Assembly (NCBI RefSeq): GCF_024502345.1
Contig: NZ_JALDNN010000001.1
DNA: 64,000 nt
Direction: 5' to 3' (one strand)
From: Escherichia coli
GTDB lineage: Bacteria; Pseudomonadota; Gammaproteobacteria; Enterobacterales; Enterobacteriaceae
Every line of letters starts with the position of its first letter. Within the stretch, counting starts at the first letter, position 1. The notes under the pieces are model-generated. The model saw nothing but the letters and a program-made list of their open reading frames with translations. It was not told the DNA's origin and searched no databases. Of the stretch, positions 2,421 to 62,760 are shown piece by piece. The position numbers and the translations under genes were made by a program.

Positions 2421-3759
2421 CATAAGCGCTAACTTAAGGGTTGTGGTATTACGCCTGATATGATTTAACGTGCCGATGAATTACTCTCACGATAACTGGT
2501 CAGCAATTCTGGCCCATATTGGTAAGCCCGAAGAACTGGATACTTCGGCACGTAATGCCGGGGCTCTAACCCGCCGCCGCGAAATTCGTGATGCTGCAAC
2601 TCTGCTACGTCTGGGGCTGGCTTACGGCCCCGGGGGGATGTCATTACGTGAAGTCACTGCATGGGCTCAGCTCCATGACGTTGCAACATTATCTGACGTG
2701 GCTCTCCTGAAGCGGCTGCGGAATGCCGCCGACTGGTTTGGCATACTTGCCGCACAAACACTTGCTGTGCGCGCCGCAGTTACGGGTTGTACAAGCGGAA
2801 AGAGATTGCGTCTTGTCGATGGAACAGCAATCAGTGCGCCCGGGGGCGGCAGCGCTGAATGGCGACTACATATGGGATATGATCCTCATACCTGTCAGTT
2901 CACTGATTTTGAGCTAACCGACAGCAGAGACGCTGAACGGCTGGACCGATTTGCGCAAACGGCAGACGAGATACGCATTGCTGACCGGGGATTCGGTTCG
3001 CGTCCCGAATGTATCCGCTCACTTGCTTTTGGAGAAGCTGATTATATCGTCCGGGTTCACTGGCGAGGATTGCGCTGGTTAACTGCAGAAGGAATGCGCT
3101 TTGACATGATGGGTTTTCTGCGCGGGCTGGATTGCGGTAAGAACGGTGAAACCACTGTAATGATAGGCAATTCAGGTAATAAAAAAGCCGGAGCTCCCTT
3201 TCCGGCACGTCTCATTGCCGTATCACTTCCTCCCGAAAAAGCATTAATCAGTAAAACCCGACTGCTCAGCGAGAATCGTCGAAAAGGACGAGTAGTTCAG
3301 GCGGAAACGCTGGAAGCAGCGGGCCATGTGCTATTGCTAACATCATTACCGGAAGATGAATATTCAGCAGAGCAAGTGGCTGATTGTTACCGTCTGCGAT
3401 GGCAAATTGAACTGGCTTTTAAGCGGCTCAAAAGTTTGCTGCACCTGGATGCTTTGCGTGCAAAGGAACCTGAACTCGCGAAAGCGTGGATATTTGCTAA
3501 TCTACTCGCCGCATTTTTAATTGACGACATAATCCAGCCATCGCTGGATTTCCCCCCCAGAAGTGCCGGATCCGAAAAGAAGAACTAACTCGTTGTGGAG
3601 AATAACAAAAATGGTCATCTGGAGCTTACAGGTGGCCATTCGTGGGACAGTATCCCTGACAGCCTACAAAACGCAATTGAAGAACGCGAGGCATCGTCTT
3701 AACGAGGCACCGAGGCGTCGCATTCTTCAGATGGTTCAACCCTTAAGTTAGCGCTTATG
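2421..3759 (+). mobile_element. IS186 insertion sequence
   Basis: Perfect 23-bp terminal inverted repeats cataagcgctaacttaagggttg at 2421-2443 and 3737-3759; flanked by 10-bp direct repeat ggagtgatcc at 2411-2420 and 3760-3769. Confidence 0.9.
2470..3588 (+). CDS. insL: IS186 transposase InsL
   Basis: 372-aa ORF inside the IS186 inverted repeats. Confidence 0.9.
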   Translation: MPMNYSHDNWSAILAHIGKPEELDTSARNAGALTRRREIRDAATLLRLGLAYGPGGMSLREVTAWAQLHDVATLSDVALLKRLRNAADWFGILAAQTLAVRAAVTGCTSGKRLRLVDGTAISAPGGGSAEWRLHMGYDPHTCQFTDFELTDSRDAERLDRFAQTADEIRIADRGFGSRPECIRSLAFGEADYIVRVHWRGLRWLTAEGMRFDMMGFLRGLDCGKNGETTVMIGNSGNKKAGAPFPARLIAVSLPPEKALISKTRLLSENRRKGRVVQAETLEAAGHVLLLTSLPEDEYSAEQVADCYRLRWQIELAFKRLKSLLHLDALRAKEPELAKAWIFANLLAAFLIDDIIQPSLDFPPRSAGSEKKN

Positions 3760-48571: not shown

Positions 48572-50158
48572 TTAATGCTCGCGGGTCTGGTGGAACTGAA
48601 CGTCCGGATAACGTTCCTGCGCCAGGCGCAGATTGACCATGCTGGTAGCGATGTAAGCGAGGTTATCGCCGCCATCAAGCGCCAGTTGGCTTTCGTTCTT
48701 ACGCTTGAACTCTTCGAATTTCTTCGCGTCCGCACATTCTACCCAGCGGGCAGTGGCAACGTTGACTGACTCATACACTGCTTCAACGTTGTATTCGCTC
48801 TTCAGGCGCGCTACAACCACATCAAACTGCAGCACACCAACTGCACCAACGATCAGGTCGTTGTTGGAGATCGGACGGAACACCTGCACCGCGCCCTCTT
48901 CGGAAAGCTGTACCAGCCCTTTGAGCAGCTGTTTTTGCTTCAGCGGATCTTTCAGGCGGATACGACGGAACAGTTCTGGTGCGAAGTTCGGAATACCGGT
49001 GAACTTCATCATCTCACCCTGGGTAAAGGTGTCGCCGATCTGAATGGTGCCGTGGTTGTGCAGGCCGAGGATATCGCCAGGATACGCTTCTTCAACGTGC
49101 GAACGGTCACCCGCCATAAAGGTCAGCGCGTCAGAGATCACCACGTCTTTCGCGGTGCGCACCTGGCGCAGCTTCATGCCTTTTTCATATTTACCGGATA
49201 CCACGCGCATAAACGCCACGCGGTCGCGGTGTTTCGGGTCCATGTTGGCCTGAATTTTAAATACGAAGCCGGTAAATTTGTCTTCGCTCGCTTGTACGGT
49301 ACGGGTATCAGTCTGACGCGGCATCGGCGCAGGTGCCCACTCCACCAGGCCATCCAACATATGATCGACGCCGAAGTTACCCAGCGCAGTACCGAAGAAT
49401 ACCGGAGTGATTTCGCCCGCAAGGAACAGCTCTTTGTCGAACTCGTTAGACGCGCCTTTAACCAGTTCCAGTTCGTCACGCAGCTGCTGTGCCAGATCTT
49501 CACCAACCGCAGCATCGAGATCCGGGTTATTCAGCCCTTTAACAATGCGGACTTCCTGAATGGTGTGCCCTTTACCGCTCTGATAGAGATAGGTTTCATC
49601 TTTATAAAGGTGGTAAACGCCTTTAAACAGCTTGCCGCAGCCAATCGGCCAGGTGATCGGCGCACAGCCGATTTTCAGCTCGTTCTCAACTTCATCGAGC
49701 AGTTCCATCGGGTCGCGGATATCACGGTCAAGTTTGTTCATAAAGGTGAGGATCGGCGTGTCGCGCAGACGGGTAACTTCCATCAGCTTACGGGTACGAT
49801 CTTCAACACCTTTTGCGGCGTCGATAACCATCAGGCAGCAGTCCACCGCCGTCAGGGTACGATAGGTATCTTCCGAGAAGTCTTCGTGCCCCGGGGTGTC
49901 TAGCAGGTTAACCAGGCAATCGTGATACGGAAACTGCATCACAGACGTAGTAATGGAGATCCCACGCTGCTTTTCCATCTCCATCCAGTCCGACTTAGCG
50001 TGCTGGTTGGAACCACGGCCTTTTACTGTACCAGCGGTCTGAATGGCCTGTCCGAACAGCAGCACCTTCTCGGTGATGGTAGTTTTACCGGCGTCCGGGT
50101 GAGAAATAATTGCAAAGGTTCTTCTTTTCGCTACCTCTGCGGCCAAAAGGCTTGTCAT
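48572..50158 (-). CDS. prfC: Peptide chain release factor 3 (N-terminus differs from K-12)
   Basis: 528-aa from [27 protein letters not shown]...; K-12 RF3 as recalled begins MTLSPYLQEVAKRR. Confidence 0.93.
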
Positions 50159-50176
50159 AATTGTTGTCTCTTTGAT

Positions 50177-50293
50177 TATGTACAATCATATGTACAAAGA
50201 AAAATTCATGCCGCTGATTGTACATTTTGGAGGTATCAGAGCATAGCAGAACATGATCAGTAGGTGTATTTGTAGCCAAAGAACATTTGTACA
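50177..50293. repeat. Cluster of four TGTACA hexamers (two as TATGTACAA spaced 12 bp)
   Basis: TGTACA at 50179, 50191, 50219 and 50288, far above chance; lies between the prfC start and the dinI-like gene. Confidence 0.6.
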
Positions 50294-50346
50294 TGCAGCA
50301 ATCTTTGTTCTATTGACACTGTTTATTCATACAGTTAAAAATAACA

Positions 50347-50362
50347 CTGTATACAAACACAG
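50347..50362 (+). promoter_or_regulatory. LexA (SOS) box upstream of the dinI-like gene
   Basis: ctgtatacaaacacag = CTGT-N8-ACAG, 16 bp upstream of the start codon. Confidence 0.75.
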
Positions 50363-50377
50363 TGTAGAGGGATTTTT

Positions 50378-50626
50378 ATGCGTATTGAGATCTGCATAGC
50401 CAAAGAGAAAATGACTAAAATGCCAAACGGTGCTGTGGATGCGTTAAAGGAAGAATTAACTCGACGCATCAGTAAGCGTTATGACGATGTAGAGGTGATC
50501 GTAAAAGCCACCAGCAACGATGGCCTTTCTGTTACGCGCACCGCCGATAAAGATTCAGCTAAAACTTTTGTTCAGGAAACTCTGAAAGATACCTGGGAGT
50601 CTGCTGACGAGTGGTTTGTTCACTAA
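50378..50626 (+). CDS. DinI-family DNA-damage-inducible protein
   Basis: 82-aa [31 protein letters not shown]...[15 protein letters not shown]; C-terminus resembles DinI (QETWESADDWF). Confidence 0.85.
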
Positions 50627-51468: not shown

Positions 51469-51847
51469 TACCTCCCCTGAAAAATAATTTTTCAATGCAT
51501 TAAAAAAATATCAACAACTACGTTATTCCGCAACAACCTACTTTTTTTACCATTTTTCCACTTTAACAACATTTTGCTCCACTTTTCCACGACCAAACAA
51601 CTTAAAATCTGGTTAAAATAACATACAACACTATTATTCGTCTTCCTCGAGTCCGCCCGGAGTTCGAAAAACAAACCGAGTTAAAGCCATTTTTCAAAAA
51701 ATCGATTTTTGGTTACACCAAAATTACGGGACTGCATCCGAATTCGTTTATTTTCGAACGTATACATACAAATATGTACAATAATAAGCGAAATAATTTT
51801 TGGATATGCATTATGATATGTACACCAATTTCGTATAGAGTCTCACT

Positions 51848-52438
51848 ATGTCTCGAATTTTTGCTTACTGTCGGATATCAACGCTGGATCAGACCCCCGA
51901 AAATCAACGCCGGGAAATCGAAAGTGCAGGTTTTAAAATCAAACCTCAGCAAATAATCGAAGAACACATTAGCGGCTCAGCAGCAACCAGTGAGCGTCCT
52001 GGTTTTAACCGGTTGCTTGCTCGCCTGAAATGTGGTGATCAATTGATTGTGACAAAACTGGATCGCCTTGGTTGTAATGCAATGGATATCAGGAAAACAG
52101 TGGAACAACTGACCGAAACAGGTATCAGAGTGCATTGCTTAGCATTGGGGGGCATTGACCTGACCAGTCCAACAGGAAAAATGATGATGCAAGTAATTTC
52201 AGCAGTCGCTGAATTTGAACGAGACCTTTTACTTGAACGCACTCATTCCGGGATAGTAAGAGCCCGGGGCGCAGGGAAACGTTTTGGTCGACCACCTGTG
52301 TTAAATGAAGAACAGAAACAGGTGGTATTCGAACGAATTAAGTCAGGTGTAAGTATAAGTGCCATTGCCCGGGAATTCAAAACCTCGCGGCAAACCATTT
52401 TAAGAGCCAAAGCAAAACTTCAGACACCTGACATATAA
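51848..52438 (+). CDS. pin: Serine recombinase, Pin-like DNA invertase (PinQ/PinR type)
   Basis: 196-aa [15 protein letters not shown]...; resolvase/invertase catalytic N-domain plus C-terminal HTH. Confidence 0.85.
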
Positions 52439-52535: not shown

Positions 52536-53111
52536 CTACGGCAGTGCTGGCCATTCAATATCCTGTGCAGTTGACGTATCAACACGGTTCAGCAATACCC
52601 GATACTTTTTCCATGCTTCCAGCAACGAGATTTCTTCCTCCGTTGCAATTTCCAGATCTGCAGCATCCTGAAGCGGCGCAATATGCTCACTGGCTACCTG
52701 CATCAGGTTGTTTTTTGTTTCTTCCGCCTCCCGGATCCGGAACAGTTTTTCTGCTTCCGTATCCTTCACCCAGGCTGTGCCGTTCCACTTCTGAAACTCC
52801 CCTTCCGGGGATAACCAAGTGACATTTTCCGGTAATGGGCCAAGTTCAGAAATAAATAACGCGTCGCCGGAAGCCACGTCATAGACGGTTTTACCCCGAT
52901 GGTCTTCAACGAGATGCCACGATGCCTCATCACTGTTGAAAACAGCCACAAAGCCAGCCGGAATATCTGGCGGTGCAATATCGGTACTGTTTGCTGGCAG
53001 ACCTGTATGAGGTGGAATATATGCATCACCTTCACCAATAAATTCATTAGTTCCGGCCAGCAGATTATAAATTGTTATGGTCCGTGGTTGTTCACTCATT
53101 CTGAAATCCAT
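52536..53111 (-). CDS. tfa: Tail fibre assembly protein Tfa
   Basis: 191-aa from the ATG preceded by an AGGTG SD; ...[37 protein letters not shown]... as recalled for TfaQ/TfaR. Confidence 0.85.
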
Positions 53112-53119
53112 GTTCACCT

Positions 53120-54022
53120 CTACTTAATATCAGAGACAGAATATTGTTTATTGAACGTATGGGTGTGAGCACCAATAACGATGCTACTTCCGTGGCTATG
53201 TGCGCCAGAGATGACATTACCTACGGGATTTTCTGGATTAATCCGGTGTATATGCGAACCAGGGCGAAACCGGTTATTAGCCTGATGTTGTATCAGTACA
53301 TCATCAGCCTGATGTTCAGGGTTAATACAGACCTGCCCGGAACGTGAGCAATACGTCCGATAATCGCCGCATCCAATATATTTAGTATCCGCATAACGGC
53401 AAACAGAATTACCCGGACAGTATGCATATGTGCCAAATACTGCCGACTGGCGGGATTGTGCGTATTCCCAGTTAATTGATTCTGTTTTTTTATTAAAGTT
53501 ATCCCATGCCTGCTTCATCTGCCGGGCAACACTTTCAAACGGCACCTGACCACATCCGGCTCCCATTGCAGGGAATACCACCGTTTTTATTTTCCTGTCT
53601 GTCGTTGCGTGTTTATTGTGCTGAAAGATGGCAAGCAGAGCGGCCCAGGTTGCGTTATATACAGCGTCTGTTCCGTCAATTGTCAGCGGAACACGCATTG
53701 TTGGCGCATGTACCAGCCAGGGATGATGATTATGCCCCGTTTCAATAACAAATGCAGAACCTACAGGCTGCTCGCCGAGATATTCACGAAGAATATGATT
53801 CTGAACGCGGGACTGTAACTGAGTACCGAAGAATGCGGTAATGGCGGCATCAACACCGCCATCCATCAGGCCGAAACTGTTTGCCGCACTTACCATGCAG
53901 TCAAATTCCCTGATTGTTTCAAATGGCTTTCCGACAATATTCACATTATCTGCATTTGCGAATACCCGCTTAAATGCTTCAGCCATTTCTGTTACTGGTG
54001 CAGAAAGAATGAGCGTAATCAT
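53120..54022 (-). CDS. Macrodomain protein with tail-fibre-like His-x-His C-terminal region
   Basis: Macrodomain motifs [42 protein letters not shown]; C-terminal ...[18 protein letters not shown]; ATG overlaps the stop of the upstream stf fragment. Confidence 0.6.
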
Positions 54023-54186
54023 GCAAGCCTCACAATATAGTTAAATGCGATGTTTTTGACGGTGTTTTCCGCGTTACCAGCAGCGTTAACGGTGATGGTG
54101 TGTCCATGTGACCCTATCGCAACGGAGTGCGTATGAGCACCAATACCGACAGTATGCGCGTGTGCACCTGCAGATACTGCTGTAAA
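54019..54186 (-). pseudogene. Side tail fibre (Stf) C-terminal fragment
   Basis: ...[51 protein letters not shown]; joined out of frame to the terminase fragment upstream. Confidence 0.7.
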
Positions 54187-54892
54187 AACGCATGAAATGT
54201 GCCGACTCGTTAGCGGCTTTTTCGATCTGGCAGGAGCCTTTGATTTTAGGCGTCGAGCCGCGAATGGATTTTGGCCATACAGAGCCCTCAATACGTTTAT
54301 CCCCCAGCAGGGTTGGCGAACCCTCTTTTTCAACATCCGGTTCGAACGAGGAAAGTTCGTCATAGCAGACCACATCCACGGATTTTTCACGGTAGTTTTT
54401 GGCGGCAGCGCCGCCCAGGCACCATAAACCGACGCCCGATGAAAAGCGTTTCAGCGTGAGGGTATTATCACGATGTTTACGACCCAGCCATGGGGAAAGG
54501 TCTTTCAGGCATGGCACGTCCCTAATCGTCGTCTCCACGTGAGACTTCATAAAATCTTCAGCGGCAGAATCCGTGGGCTGAAAAAGCAGACTGTTTCGGG
54601 ATTTATGCTCAATAAAATACCCGACCACCCCCAGCAACATCTTTGTATAGCCAACACGGGCAGATTTAATCAGATTAACTGTGCGGATCTGATCATTCCC
54701 CATACTGTTCATGATGGCGATCTGGAACGGCAGCGTTTTCCATTCGCCGTCACCGTATGAGGATTCTTTCGGCAGATAATAATACTGATCAGCCCATTCA
54801 ACTGCCGTCATCGGTACAACCCTGACCAGAGGCTGCAGCGCAACCGAAACGGCAGCCATCAGATTATTCAGTTGTTGCTCTGATATATTCAT
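54185..54892 (-). pseudogene. Terminase large subunit (lambda gpA-like) N-terminal fragment, about 235 codons
   Basis: MNISEQQLNNL...PMTAVEWADQYYYLPKESSYGDGEWKTLPFQ...[41 protein letters not shown] closely parallels lambda gpA 1-215, then similarity stops. Confidence 0.85.
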
Positions 54893-55370
54893 CCAGCAAA
54901 TCCGGTAATTTATCCCCTGCCCGCGCACACTGATTTGCGCCCTTCGCAATAAGGGTTTTCAGATGGTCAAGATGACGTGGCGTTAAATCCGGGAACTGTC
55001 GCTGCATGGATAACGGAATAGAATCAAGCGTACTGGACAATGCCATCGCCAGCTTGCTGAGGGCGAAAACGCAGAAGTCTGAATCGATGAGCTTACCTTC
55101 GGTTACCTGATTTTTAAGTTTTTGAGCTACGGCCTGTTCTTCTGTCAGTTCAGCTCTGGCCCGAAGCAGCCTTTCCTCCAGATCGCCCCCGTCATCAGGT
55201 GTTCTATGATTGTGTTGTCGCCGCTCGCGATCTATCTCCAGTACAGTTTTAACGTCATAAAAAACTTCCCTCCCCCGACGCTCGACAGGAGGAACGCCCC
55301 ATTTATCAAATGCCTGAACAGAGATACCGATGGAGGAGGCCATATCACTTTTATTCAATAAAAAGGCCAT
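54864..55370 (-). CDS. noh: Terminase small subunit, Nu1-like (Noh)
   Basis: MAFLLNKSDMASSIGISVQAFDKWGV... resembles lambda Nu1; GGAGAGGAG SD; 3' end overlaps the terminase-A fragment start. Confidence 0.8.
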   Translation of the reverse strand: MAFLLNKSDMASSIGISVQAFDKWGVPPVERRGREVFYDVKTVLEIDRERRQHNHRTPDDGGDLEERLLRARAELTEEQAVAQKLKNQVTEGKLIDSDFCVFALSKLAMALSSTLDSIPLSMQRQFPDLTPRHLDHLKTLIAKGANQCARAGDKLPDLLDEYIRATTE

Positions 55371-57386: not shown

Positions 57387-57592
57387 TTCATTTTCACTTT
57401 CTTAAATCTAACGACAGACGGCTAACATTTAAGTATTGTGAAATATTATCAAATGTAATCATCATTGATTTACAAAAGATACATTTTGCCCCGAAAGGAT
57501 TCCTGTCAGAAACATCAAAAGATGATGTTCTATACTGAGAACCATGGCAACACGGGCATCTAAAGTGAATATGGTTTGTAATATTTTCTACC

Positions 57593-57805
57593 TCAAAGTG
57601 CCACTACATGAACAGCCGCGGGGCCTTTAGGTCCGTTCTCAATACCAAATTCGACTTGCTGATTCTCAGTTAACGTTTTGAAATCGTTGCTCTGAATAGC
57701 TGAGAAATGGACAAACACATCTTTGCTACCATCTTTCGGCGTGATGAAACCAAAACCTTTTTCAGGGTTAAACCATTTCACTAAACCAGTCATTTTGTTA
57801 GACAT
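57593..57805 (-). CDS. cspI: Cold shock protein, CspI-like
   Basis: 70-aa [70 protein letters not shown]. Confidence 0.92.
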
Positions 57806-58174
57806 CATTATTACCTTTTGAAGAAGTGAGCCCTTGGGCAGAATGGTCCGAAAAAAAATATCAGAGAGAAAAACCAACAAGGAAATCTCAAGAGGTACAA
57901 ATAATAAAATTATAACAATGACTGCTTCAGATAATTTTGTAACAAACCAGAACACCATTAACGCATGATTAACCAACCATAGCAAGGATTACTTTTGTAA
58001 AGAAAAACACACGAATGAAACAATAGCTTTATTTATTAATAAAACGTGTCATTCTGTCTAATGACCTTTTATCTTACCCTTAAGATTTCAAGGATTTTGA
58101 CTCATGGAAGAGTCCTTTTTATTTAAATTTCACATTCAGCGCTAAAAATAATCCGATTTAATGTTAATCTACAT

Positions 58175-59196
<1,022 letters not shown>

Positions 59197-59301
59197 GGAT
59201 ATTTATCAGGATTTATCGGTTTCTGAACCCTGGATATGTTTATCTGTCCCGGCCTGTTGAATCAGGCGGGGAAAAGGTAAAGACAATCAAGAGGATTATT
59301 T

Positions 59302-59574
59302 ATGGACAATAACACCATTTCTCTACAGGAGTTGCTCGACTGCATTTCAAAGCTTCGGGATGATGTAAATGCCCTCACTGTTGCATTTTCATATTTGGCC
59401 TTATCAATTCCCAGAGAACAAATGCAACCAACACTGGCATCGCTCCTGCTTGAATCACGCAACCCCAAATGGTCCCAGGAACAACAAAATTCTTTCAAGT
59501 GGCTGGCGGCATTACTGGAAGAAAAATATGCTGGTAAAATTACCATTTCGGTGGAGTCTTCAGAGAATCAGTAA
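59302..59574 (+). CDS. Hypothetical 90-aa protein on the opposite strand within the lysis cassette
   Basis: AGGA 7 nt upstream of the ATG; MDNNTISLQELLDCISKLRDDVNALTVAFSYLALSIPREQMQPTLASLLLE... Confidence 0.35.
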   Translation: MDNNTISLQELLDCISKLRDDVNALTVAFSYLALSIPREQMQPTLASLLLESRNPKWSQEQQNSFKWLAALLEEKYAGKITISVESSENQ

Positions 59575-59884
59575 TTCTTCCTGGTAGCTTTCCTTTGTAG
59601 GTTATCCACACATTCTGCGCCTCTAAAATTACGGGGCGCTTTTCCGGCGACTGCTCATCCCCTTCACATAACCCGGCTGCAACTTCCAGGAAGACCTGTC
59701 TGATGCTCCTTCTGGCTGCTGCCTCATAAAACTCCAGCGCGGCACCTTCAACACGGTCCAGCGAGATGTCCAGGTCAAAAATTTCACCGTCAAAGCGTTT
59801 TTTGTCCCTTAATGCTACAGTTACCGCAACTTTATTCTCAAAATTGCGGATCCCTTTCACAATCAGTTCATAGTTTTGTGTCAT
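59540..59884 (-). CDS. YdfR-like prophage protein (DUF1327)
   Basis: MTQNYELIVKGIRNFENKVAVTVALRDKKRFDGEIFDLDISLDRVEGAALEFYEAAARRS... Confidence 0.65.
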   Translation of the reverse strand: MTQNYELIVKGIRNFENKVAVTVALRDKKRFDGEIFDLDISLDRVEGAALEFYEAAARRSIRQVFLEVAAGLCEGDEQSPEKRPVILEAQNVWITYKGKLPGRITDSLKTPPKW

Positions 59885-59888
59885 TGAA

Positions 59889-60104
59889 TTACTCTCCCCG
59901 TGCAACCTTACGCTTGTCTTCTTTAATCTTGAAATAAAGGTTTGTCAGGTACGTCAGCAAGCCAAATACCAGACTACCCAGCACACCGATTGCAGCCCAC
60001 TGTGACGGAGTTACTTTATCGAGTAACTGCAATGCCCAGAAACCAGCATTACCAGCCGATGTGCCATAGGCGATACCTGTTGTTAACTTATCCATTGATT
60101 TCAT
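59889..60104 (-). CDS. Phage holin (EssQ/EssD type)
   Basis: 71-aa [71 protein letters not shown]. Confidence 0.88.
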
Positions 60105-60576: not shown

Positions 60577-60856
60577 ATATTGTGGTACTTTTTGTGGGAG
60601 TCATCCACTTACGCACTTTGTTTTGCTATGCCAGCAGTTAGCTTCTGCTGTAAAACTATTCATGCAGCAAACCTGCACTTCACCACAATGGTTAGCATAC
60701 TTTTCCTGATTAAGTTATTGCCAAATATGCTGGCCATTGTTTCATGTATTGGACCTCCTTACTCTTTATTAAAGAGATCCAATATTCACCACTCTGTCTG
60801 TATCTCCACTCAGGCATCAGCCTTCTTCGTTATCGTATACAGACAAACTATGAATT

Positions 60857-61072
60857 TTAATCAGTAATTATGACATTTGCTGCTGCAGGACCTTTAGCAC
60901 CACTCTCTACAGAGAAGGTAACCTTTTGACCTTCAAATAAGATTCGATAATTATCATTCTGAATCGCAGAAAAATGCACAAACACATCTTTACTACCATC
61001 AACAGGAGAAATAAAGCCAAAACCTTTATCAGCGTTAAACCATTTTACTAAACCAGTCATTTTATTTGACAT
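60857..61072 (-). CDS. cspB: Cold shock protein, CspB-like
   Basis: 71-aa [71 protein letters not shown]. Confidence 0.92.
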
Positions 61073-61372
61073 TCTACATTCCTTAACTTGAGCCTTTCGG
61101 CATAAATGGCTTGTATAACAGAAACGACTTCGTACTTAATTGGAGAGACTCAAAGAAGGAATAAGTGAATAACACCTGAAATGAGAACTGCTTTAGTAAA
61201 CTACTTCGTATATCGTCTGTTCTTCAAACCGACGCAATCATTAACGCATAGTTGAACATATGAAGCAATGTTTATTTTAGACATCCAGCCATCTTCAACC
61301 CCATCAAAAAACTATAGCTTTCTTCAGGAACGTGTGTATAGTGCGCCAAGTTATCAGTATTAAGGAATTTTT

Positions 61373-62007: not shown

Positions 62008-62760
62008 TTATCTCGTCACCTTTCTCAATTGTGCTTCAGCGTAAGATTCCTCCTGCCAGCACTTTGTAACCAGTTTATCAATGACATTTGCATATCCTTT
62101 ATACCACTGATAATCACTCAGGTCCGGTACCAGCTTCTGGACATGATGCCGCGCCAGTGTGGTTGGTAAACGACTAAACCGTTTTCCATTGCAACGCCCA
62201 CAAATCTTATAAACAGGTGTGCCATGAAGCCGGGTCCTTTTTTCATCCAAGACAATACCTTTACCCTTACACCCTCTGCACGCTGTGCTGACTTCTCCCT
62301 TACCATGGCAATGCTGACATAGTTCCTTCACCCACTCTTCTTTGATAACAGATTCCCCGCTTCTGGAGTGTTTCACCACTTCGCGCAATACATTATGAAA
62401 TCCAGTACCAGCACAATGCTCACAACGAGCCTTACTTGCCGCAGACCTGGAATAATCAGCAAAGGCAAAATTCACAAGGTAAGGAATAATCTGTAGCCGG
62501 GTTTCTTCACTCAATTTATTCAATGTCGGGTTATCCAGTGCCATCGCGTAATTGAGCAGACCTTCAATCGCAAACTGAGGATCCTGAACACCAACTTTTG
62601 CCAGGAATAAGGCAAACCCAAGCGGTGCTTTCGACTGCACCATCCCCTGCGCAGCCATCACATCCGTAATCGTTAAACCACCAGAGCCTGTCGCCGGTGC
62701 GTCATCACTCAATTTTGGAGATTTTGGGGAGTAATATTTTGGTAAGGCTTCAAGGTTCAT
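62008..62760 (-). CDS. Late-gene antiterminator Q (QuuQ/YdfT type)
   Basis: 250-aa ORF with Cys-rich zinc-finger-like segment CEHCAGTG...CQHCHGKGE...CRGCKGKG...CGRCNGK. Confidence 0.8.
   Translation of the reverse strand: MNLEALPKYYSPKSPKLSDDAPATGSGGLTITDVMAAQGMVQSKAPLGFALFLAKVGVQDPQFAIEGLLNYAMALDNPTLNKLSEETRLQIIPYLVNFAFADYSRSAASKARCEHCAGTGFHNVLREVVKHSRSGESVIKEEWVKELCQHCHGKGEVSTACRGCKGKGIVLDEKRTRLHGTPVYKICGRCNGKRFSRLPTTLARHHVQKLVPDLSDYQWYKGYANVIDKLVTKCWQEESYAEAQLRKVTR

Follow-up and report, generated by a model that had tools for sequence, protein, structure and literature searches.

Four copies of the palindromic hexamer TGTACA lie close together upstream of the RF3 gene prfC in an Escherichia coli prophage, which raises the question of the protein that reads them. 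The window, i.e. the whole stretch of 64,000 nucleotides analysed here, carries these copies at positions 50179, 50191, 50219 and 50288. A preliminary description of the sequence had proposed three roles for them: arm-type sites of the integrase in the attR arm, operators for a phage regulator such as CI, or the promoter architecture of prfC. The four perfect copies within 115 bp were recovered at these positions. The longer 8-mer TTGTACAT is present at all four (starting at 50178 and 50190 on the minus strand and at 50218 and 50287 on the plus strand), and the extended motif TATGTACAA, found at 50177 and 50189, gives the arrangement TATGTACAA-N3-TATGTACAA that had been pointed out. The four predicted arm-type sites are named a to d from the outside inwards. 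Site a (TTGTACAT, 50287..50294, plus strand) is the outermost site of the P arm, at about 187 bp from the core, and is identical in the attP of free phages. Site b (TTGTACAT, 50218..50225, plus strand) has the same orientation as site a and is also seen in free-phage attP. Sites c (TTGTACAT on the minus strand, 50190..50197) and d (TTGTACATAA on the minus strand, 50178..50185) are respectively the distal and the proximal member of a pair spaced by 12 bp, and the TGTACA of site d ends 20 nt before the ATG of a substitute prfC start. Substitutions in this arm are few within E. coli and avoid the 8-mers; in strain ZY22049, three of them flank site a, which is itself intact.

The motif scan of the window counted 12 TGTACA against 10.7 +/- 3.3 expected, a background level without enrichment, and the cluster stands out by its density only, the clustering alone being significant. 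Sequences of 64 kb were simulated with first-order Markov models, 150 for each of three training sets: the whole window, the prophage part and the AT-rich intergenic part. Not one of the 450 simulated sequences contained as many as four copies in 115 bp (the maximum was three, in 2/450), in line with the earlier claim that the cluster exceeds chance. The G+C content of the cluster region is 33%. In the 13.7 kb of prophage DNA of the window, three TGTACA are found besides the cluster, as the composition predicts.

The cluster had been placed at the prophage/prfC boundary, and this position has to be corrected. Comparison of attL, attR, the K-12 attB and the free-phage attP mapped a core or overlap region, ATTATTTCTCACCC on the minus strand (50097..50110), that is common to the four att sequences. 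The base at 50111 is of phage type, which puts the crossover on the prfC-distal side of that position. The crossover took place within this core, inside prfC, and the cluster sits in phage DNA at 70-190 bp from it. The core and its flanks contain no TGTACA, and the word of the arm sites is thus distinct from the core-type sequence. The attR unit, composed of the P arm of attP and the core, extends over 50097..50323 and is delimited by mosaic boundaries. Alignment with the prophage-free K-12 defines a hybrid prfC (48572..50158, minus strand; annotated as 528 aa in NZ_CP031919) in which a phage N-terminus is in frame with the host codons. The phage-supplied substitute 5' end corresponds to codons 1-16 (50111..50158, minus strand), with a ribosome-binding region just upstream, and is identical in the free phages cdtI and Ayreon. 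In the K-12 alignment, homology starts only about 10 codons into prfC; the first prfC codons, the ribosome-binding region and all the DNA upstream are foreign with respect to the K-12 sequence MTLSPYLQEVAKRR..., and the cluster is absent from this prophage-free strain. An in-frame replacement N-terminus with its ATG is found in the window, in free-phage attP, in another enterobacterium and in SXT. The junction and arm sequence was detected at a coverage of at least 80% in 654 of 5,426 complete E. coli genomes (about 12%).

The int gene and the attL of this prophage lie outside the window, and attL was read from O145:NM FWSEC0002, a genome with an identical junction. The other prophage end in that genome comprises yjjG, the original prfC 5' fragment and the gene of a 407-aa tyrosine integrase (Int). 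The attL arm located directly upstream of the int ATG (tcTGTACAtatgctTGTACAtaaTGTACAaagcgg...gattTGTACAaggtgagtaATG) carries four TGTACA, at -66, -54, -45 and -15 from this ATG. The 22-bp block TGTACATATGnTTGTACATAAT is common to this int-proximal arm and to the window arm, and the window-arm block TGTACATATGaTTGTACATAAT recurs in the int-proximal arm as TGTACATATGcTTGTACATAAT. The free phages cdtI (AB285204) and Ayreon (MF807953), which encode the same Int at 98% identity, have an intact attP. Sites a and b, which are inverted, come first in it, followed by the direct pair c and d with its 12-bp spacing and by the mimic of the prfC 5' end; then comes the core, which about 170 bp separate from sites e to h, and the int ATG closes the order. 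Four TGTACA sites are found on each side of the core, the eight sites lying at -78 to -187 and +171 to +222 from it. The comparison with attP arms of related prfC-integrating phages, suggested at the outset, consequently finds the sites in both arms. Ayreon and E. coli strain SWYH are homologous up to about 50323, a position just outside site a; their DNA beyond it is unrelated and has no dinI. This mosaic boundary indicates that the conserved recombination module ends just outside the outermost site.

The attP was also searched for other protein-binding sequences. The IHF consensus WATCAANNNNTTR has no match with at most one mismatch in attP between the arm sites and the core (L005, positions 2540-3000), a result that is compatible with bending by another factor or with a degenerate site. 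The accessory-factor layout to be expected in an intasome of this kind is thus not visible in the sequence. The stretch from the core to the TGTACA sites of the int-proximal arm contains semi-conserved blocks, CTCCTTTCA (twice) and GATTGCTTTC (L005, positions 2790-2930, and the equivalents in L006, L095 and L096). These blocks are candidate sites of the excisionase or of a bending protein. In the window arm, GATTGCT likewise stands ahead of the outermost site (reverse complement of about 50296-50302).

Further TGTACA copies are located upstream of a pin-like recombinase gene (51848-52438), which encodes a protein of 196 aa of the resolvase/invertase family. The double occurrence of the extended motif at this place was verified, with TGTACA starts at 51775 and 51819 inside ATATGTACA (positions 50188, 51772 and 51816 in the window). 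The idea that these copies are part of the same system was rejected. The region upstream of pin recurs at about 91% identity in eight phages devoid of this integrase, which have TGCACA and TGAACA at the two positions and a TGTACA elsewhere, and the pin module is absent from cdtI and Ayreon, both with a complete attP. The allele with both copies is confined to DNA linked to this integrase (the window, 2H10 and PhiR63_1), and as one linked haplotype it does not speak for selection. The copies upstream of pin are best explained by drift in AT-rich DNA.

The conservation of the motif was then followed in relatives of Int. A scan of viral contigs with an integrase profile gave only predictions of E. 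coli prophages, 97-99% identical and cut at int, i.e. no diversity, and the diversity set comes from a scan of species-representative genomes. Int homologues from 85% down to 41% identity were found in Salmonella, Trabulsiella, Pantoea, Xenorhabdus, Serratia, Symbiopectobacterium, Erwinia, Vibrio, Shewanella, Marinobacterium, Microbulbifer, Acinetobacter, Pseudomonas and others. The upstream flanks, where they are recognisable, always correspond to a prfC 5' fragment that ends about 200-234 bp before int, and the same prfC junction is found in Salmonella, Pantoea, Xenorhabdus, Serratia, Vibrio, Shewanella and the SXT/R391 elements. In 38 species-level loci, the 100 bp preceding int contain TGTACA at a density of 20.3 per kb, against 0.105 per kb elsewhere, an enrichment of about 190-fold; nearly all the TGTACA of each locus of about 7 kb fall within these 100 bp. 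An unbiased count of repeated 6-mers in the 38 loci gives ATGTAC and TGTACA as the most recurrent. In an alignment of the int-proximal arm from seven genera, the mean column identity is 67% and the invariant elements are the core, TGTACA, TGTACATAA and TGTACA, where TGTACATAA is the invariant form of site f. Conservation of site g in the int-proximal arm is limited to the closest genera, and the GC-rich Pseudomonas relatives keep only TGTAC/GTACA cores. The exact definition of the site is approximate for these two reasons.

The P arm was searched in viral contigs by requiring a TGTACA pair 12 bp apart, situated 55-85 bp upstream of the core and running into prfC. Two matches were obtained, with well under one expected by chance. 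One is the attR of another enterobacterium (L172), in which aattTGTACAcgctgtTGTACAtatctgagaaacgacataATG is followed by a substitute prfC N-terminus; the other is an arm of the SXT/R391 type. In a genuine SXT/R391 ICE of E. coli (NZ_AP022095), setR, croS, setCD, eexS and traG adjoin a hybrid prfC, and the junction consists of gtgTGTACAAAtccgTGTACAAActaaaagaatttatacATG followed by the substitute prfC N-terminus. The L172 and SXT/R391 attR display the same 12-bp pair, 18-20 nt before the substitute prfC ATG. The presence of the same word and of the same pair in these arms indicates that motif and geometry are common to the whole prfC-targeting family. The attL arm of the SXT type contains gtgTGTACAAActtgaGTACAAA, then, about 230 bp further, gagTGTACAAAcagtgTGTACAAA, followed by a convergent xis; four (T)GTACAAA are present in this arm. 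A 47.6-kb metagenomic contig classified as viral (L173) contains, at positions 700-1100, a P arm of the SXT/R391 type, a substitute prfC start and the core. Past the core there is no prfC, and about 230 bp devoid of perfect TGTACA precede a different integrase-like gene (MKRVNLTDTWLRANKGK). This contig may represent a tandem or hybrid arrangement at prfC.

A sister lineage of Int (44-47% identity), represented in Gifsy-1, SPN3UB, Kluyvera, Citrobacter and Edwardsiella, adjoins MKNIRNFSIIAHID, the 5' end of lepA. In the intact attP of SPN3UB, GTCCACcgctgtGTCCAT is separated by about 45 bp from a substitute lepA ATG, which the core follows; a further stretch of about 150 bp leads to GTCCACcagcgcGTCCAT...ATGGAC...ATGGAC and then to the int ATG. 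The layout, including the 12-bp pair, is kept in this lineage, but both arms carry the word GTCCAy/ATGGAC instead of TGTACA. The insertion in lepA at ..FSIIAHID and that in prfC at ..FAIISHPD are at the same structural position of two paralogous GTPase genes.

The domains of Int were also compared between the lineages. The SXT-type Int, with TGTACA as arm motif, is identical to the phage Int at 57% in the arm-binding domain, 22% in the core-binding domain, 39% in the catalytic domain and 38% over the whole protein. The corresponding values for Int of the lepA lineage, with GTCCAy as arm motif, are 46-49%, 44%, 44-48% and 44-46%. The similarity of the arm-binding domain therefore tracks the arm motif. 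The similarity of the recombination directionality factor (RDF) does not. All the lineages examined have a small HTH_17-like gene together with int. The candidate Xis of the phage is 80% identical to that of Pantoea and weakly similar to the SPN3UB excisionase, and it has no detectable similarity with the SXT Xis, which goes with the same arm motif. Since the Int domain follows the motif and the RDF shows the opposite trend, the arm-binding domain of Int is the best candidate reader. Int contains the Pfam domains PF13356 Arm-DNA-bind_3 (residues 3-90, E = 1.9e-16), PF22022 Phage_int_M and PF00589 Phage_integrase. Its residues 1-80 match the solved N-terminal arm-binding domain 3JTZ/3RMP and its residues 1-96 match 3JU0. 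The Int of this prophage belongs to the cdtI-phage/SXT cluster, with a DUF4102 (Arm-DNA-bind_3) N-terminal domain. The cdt1-phage integrase and IntSXT have been grouped in one 'SXT cluster' of DUF4102 integrases, all inserting at prfC (PMC8138268). Integration at prfC is documented for the cdt1 phage (Asakura 2007, as cited in PMC8138268) and for Stx1a and Stx2c phages (PMC10132054).

From these comparisons, the four TTGTACAT sites are very probably arm-type sites of the prophage tyrosine integrase, located in the attR (P) arm; we give this reading, which is drawn from sequence, a probability of about 0.8. The first of the three roles proposed earlier is thus the one retained: the motif and the 22-bp block recur in the other arm, the sites are conserved across genera while the spacers diverge, the word changes in the sister integrase lineage, and the distribution follows the arm-binding domain of Int. 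The four sites would have formed the P arm of attP and become attR on integration. Each Int protomer would place its N-terminal domain on an arm site and its C-terminal domains on a core site, and attP would be folded into an intasome capturing attB inside prfC codons 17-21. During excision, Int would bridge the P arm to the int-proximal arm (attL) with the help of the excisionase. The P arm carries a replacement start because integration removes codons 1-16 of prfC together with its promoter, and as a result sites c and d fall 20-40 nt upstream of the new ATG; in the other arm, site h adjoins the int ribosome-binding site. By analogy with IntS of KplE1, occupancy by Int could repress int and possibly the hybrid prfC too. 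The physical binding by the N-domain, the geometry of the intasome and the effect of Int on prfC and int expression are what we infer from this arrangement. The sites are perhaps no longer used in this strain, where the prophage is defective and int and attL are outside the window.

Among the other possible readers, the RDF deserves attention: the sites could be bound by the excisionase, the small HTH_17-like protein, rather than by Int, and set the directionality of recombination. A gene of this type stands beside int in every lineage examined, TorI of KplE1 binds within attL where it overlaps the intS promoter (PMC2951348), and RDF sites typically consist of direct repeats spaced by about one helical turn. 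We nevertheless consider this improbable, since RDF similarity runs counter to the motif where the Int arm-binding domain fits it, eight sites are distributed over both arms and in both orientations, and the blocks CTCCTTTCA and GATTGCTTTC are better RDF candidates. Still less weight is given to another DNA-binding protein encoded by the element and linked to the int module. The comparative data do point to a lineage-specific reader and do not name it directly, but only int and the small RDF are common to lambdoid phages, SXT/R391 ICEs and the other carriers of the motif, and Int already has an arm-binding domain whose conservation tracks the motif. An accumulation by chance of an AT-rich palindrome in AT-rich phage DNA would agree with the absence of enrichment over the window, with the low G+C of the region (33%) and with the drift-like copies near pin; it is effectively refuted by the simulations (0/450), by the enrichment of about 190-fold in 38 species and by the invariance across genera, and its probability is close to nil.

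A role in transcription is another matter, as the phage must supply a prfC promoter, which has to be located within 50159-50377 because the dinI-like gene is divergent. The cluster could then act mainly as promoter or operator of the hybrid prfC (and, in the opposite arm, of int), with RNA polymerase or a transcription factor of host or phage origin as its reader in place of the recombination machinery. The -10-like hexamers TACAAT, TATGAT and CATAAT are embedded in the sites, and integration of SXT/R391 is reported to restore a functional prfC (PMC12210918). On the other hand, a scan for sigma-70 sites (-35/-10 with a spacing of 16-18 nt) over 50159-50377 detected none on the minus strand, only weak -10-like hexamers devoid of a -35, and in the equivalent region of the cdtI attP none was found on the prfC-sense strand nor upstream of int. 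Sister lineages living in the same hosts have TGTACA in one case and GTCCAy in the other, which speaks against a host factor, and a host transcription factor or RNA polymerase was rejected as the reader. The motif also travels with int across elements with unrelated regulators, and this reading is therefore held to be very unlikely. The promoter proposed for prfC is plausible by its geometry only (proximal sites 20 nt before the ATG); no sigma-70-like site accompanies it and the motif follows the integrase lineage. Operators for CI or Cro are not supported, as the sites do not follow the repressor/immunity module: the lambdoid mosaics differ in it, and the SXT/R391 elements are under SetR/CroS control. 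A promoter role and an arm-site function are compatible with each other, with a possible overlap and repression by Int.

Several features were observed around the attR unit. A dinI-like gene (50378-50626, plus strand; PF06183) lies behind a near-consensus promoter, with TTGACA at 50313-50318, and is preceded by two LexA boxes (CTGT-N8-ACAG) at 50319-50334 and 50347-50362. Ayreon lacks this SOS-regulated moron, which is found beside other integrases in O157 genomes. The prophage is defective: the N-terminal fragment of a lambda-type terminase gpA (54086-54949, minus strand) adjoins the C-terminal fragment of a tail fibre (53120-54022, minus strand), which indicates that the head and tail genes were deleted. 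It retains the lysis genes (58175-60104), Q (62008-62760) and csp genes. A full-length match to Rfam IS009 (221 bits; 52570-52768, minus strand) is located inside the tail-fibre-assembly gene, beside the pin-like recombinase. Matches to the cspA thermoregulator (RF01766) at 57566-57963 and 60794-61233, both on the minus strand, cover the cold-shock genes of the prophage and their 5' leaders.

The hybrid RF3 gene is common in E. coli, about 12% of complete genomes carrying the phage-derived prfC 5' end and the arm; in these genomes, the phage-supplied start of RF3 is embedded among predicted integrase sites. This integrase family mobilises Shiga-toxin and CDT phages in E. coli as well as the SXT/R391 multidrug-resistance ICEs. 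The map obtained here (sites of the form TTGTACAT(A/T), eight sites, a 12-bp pair per arm) is concrete and testable, and enables the design of a minimal attP, studies of directionality and tests of interference between phages and ICEs at prfC. A more speculative extension, to which we give little credence, is that TGTACA is common to every prfC-targeting integrase, with cross-reactions (cross-excision, tandem capture or exclusion) and a coupling of RF3 and Int expression to the recombination state through occupancy by Int. Cross-reaction is conceivable because the prfC-targeting elements, from lambdoid phages converting to Stx or CDT up to the SXT/R391 resistance ICEs, have a common arm word and a common attB, with which the Int of one element could assemble on the arms of another, and coupling because the proximal sites are 18-20 nt before the prfC start and the last site adjoins the int ribosome-binding site.

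Arm-type sites are a classical feature of integrase systems. The integration at prfC of this phage group and of SXT/R391 is already known, and the arm sites are mechanistically ordinary; no description of the arm sites or of a shared TGTACA word for the prfC-targeting family was found in the literature searched, which did not cover the primary SXT and cdtI papers. Among the closest known systems are cdtI (the CDT-1 phage, AB285204), the prfC-integrating Stx1a/Stx2c phages, Ayreon, 2H10 and PhiR63_1, with Int 97-98% identical and an identical P arm. The prophage of the window differs from the cdtI/Ayreon group as a defective remnant with another cargo and mosaic (dinI, csp genes and the pin-like recombinase). 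Like the P1, P2 and P'1-P'3 sites of lambda Int, the sites are short repeats in both attP arms, distinct from the core and, by our reading, recognised by an N-terminal domain. The family of this domain, the sequence, number and positions of the sites, and the lack of an IHF consensus in attP distinguish them from lambda. KplE1 (CPS-53) with IntS/TorI, and likewise HK620/Sf6, share with this system a heterobivalent Int with an arm-binding domain and the order core, sites, int ATG. In KplE1, arm-type sites overlap the int promoter region inside attL, Int and the RDF repress int, and the arm sites of IntS, placed between the core and the start of int, are a precedent established by experiment (PMC2951348). 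The differences are that KplE1 targets the tRNA gene argW, needs no substitute promoter or N-terminus and has another arm-site sequence, and that binding was shown experimentally for KplE1 whereas we infer it for the TGTACA sites.

The SXT/R391 elements insert at the same position, supply a prfC 5' end and have the core ...AT(T/C)TC(T/G)CACCC...; both systems use a DUF4102-type integrase, and the present comparison adds the TGTACA-type pair 12 bp apart before the substitute ATG and the further copies in the other arm. Their integration is reported to restore a functional prfC through the start codon and N-terminus of the element (PMC12210918), and their module (IntSXT, Xis and attP) was described by Hochhut & Waldor 1999 and Burrus & Waldor 2003, as cited in PMC5812530, PMC2791158 and PMC4344509. 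However, Int is only 38-39% identical overall, against 57% in the arm-binding domain, the RDFs are devoid of detectable similarity, and the vehicle is a conjugative element instead of a lambdoid phage. In SXT, transcription of int runs towards attL, converges with that of xis and depends on SetCD (PMC4344509), whereas the int of the phage begins 15 bp past the last arm site and points away from attL. Finally, the elements of the Gifsy-1/SPN3UB type use the equivalent codons of a paralogous translational GTPase gene, for which they supply a substitute 5' end, and have the same arm layout; their word is GTCCAy/ATGGAC and their target lepA, as against TGTACA and prfC here.
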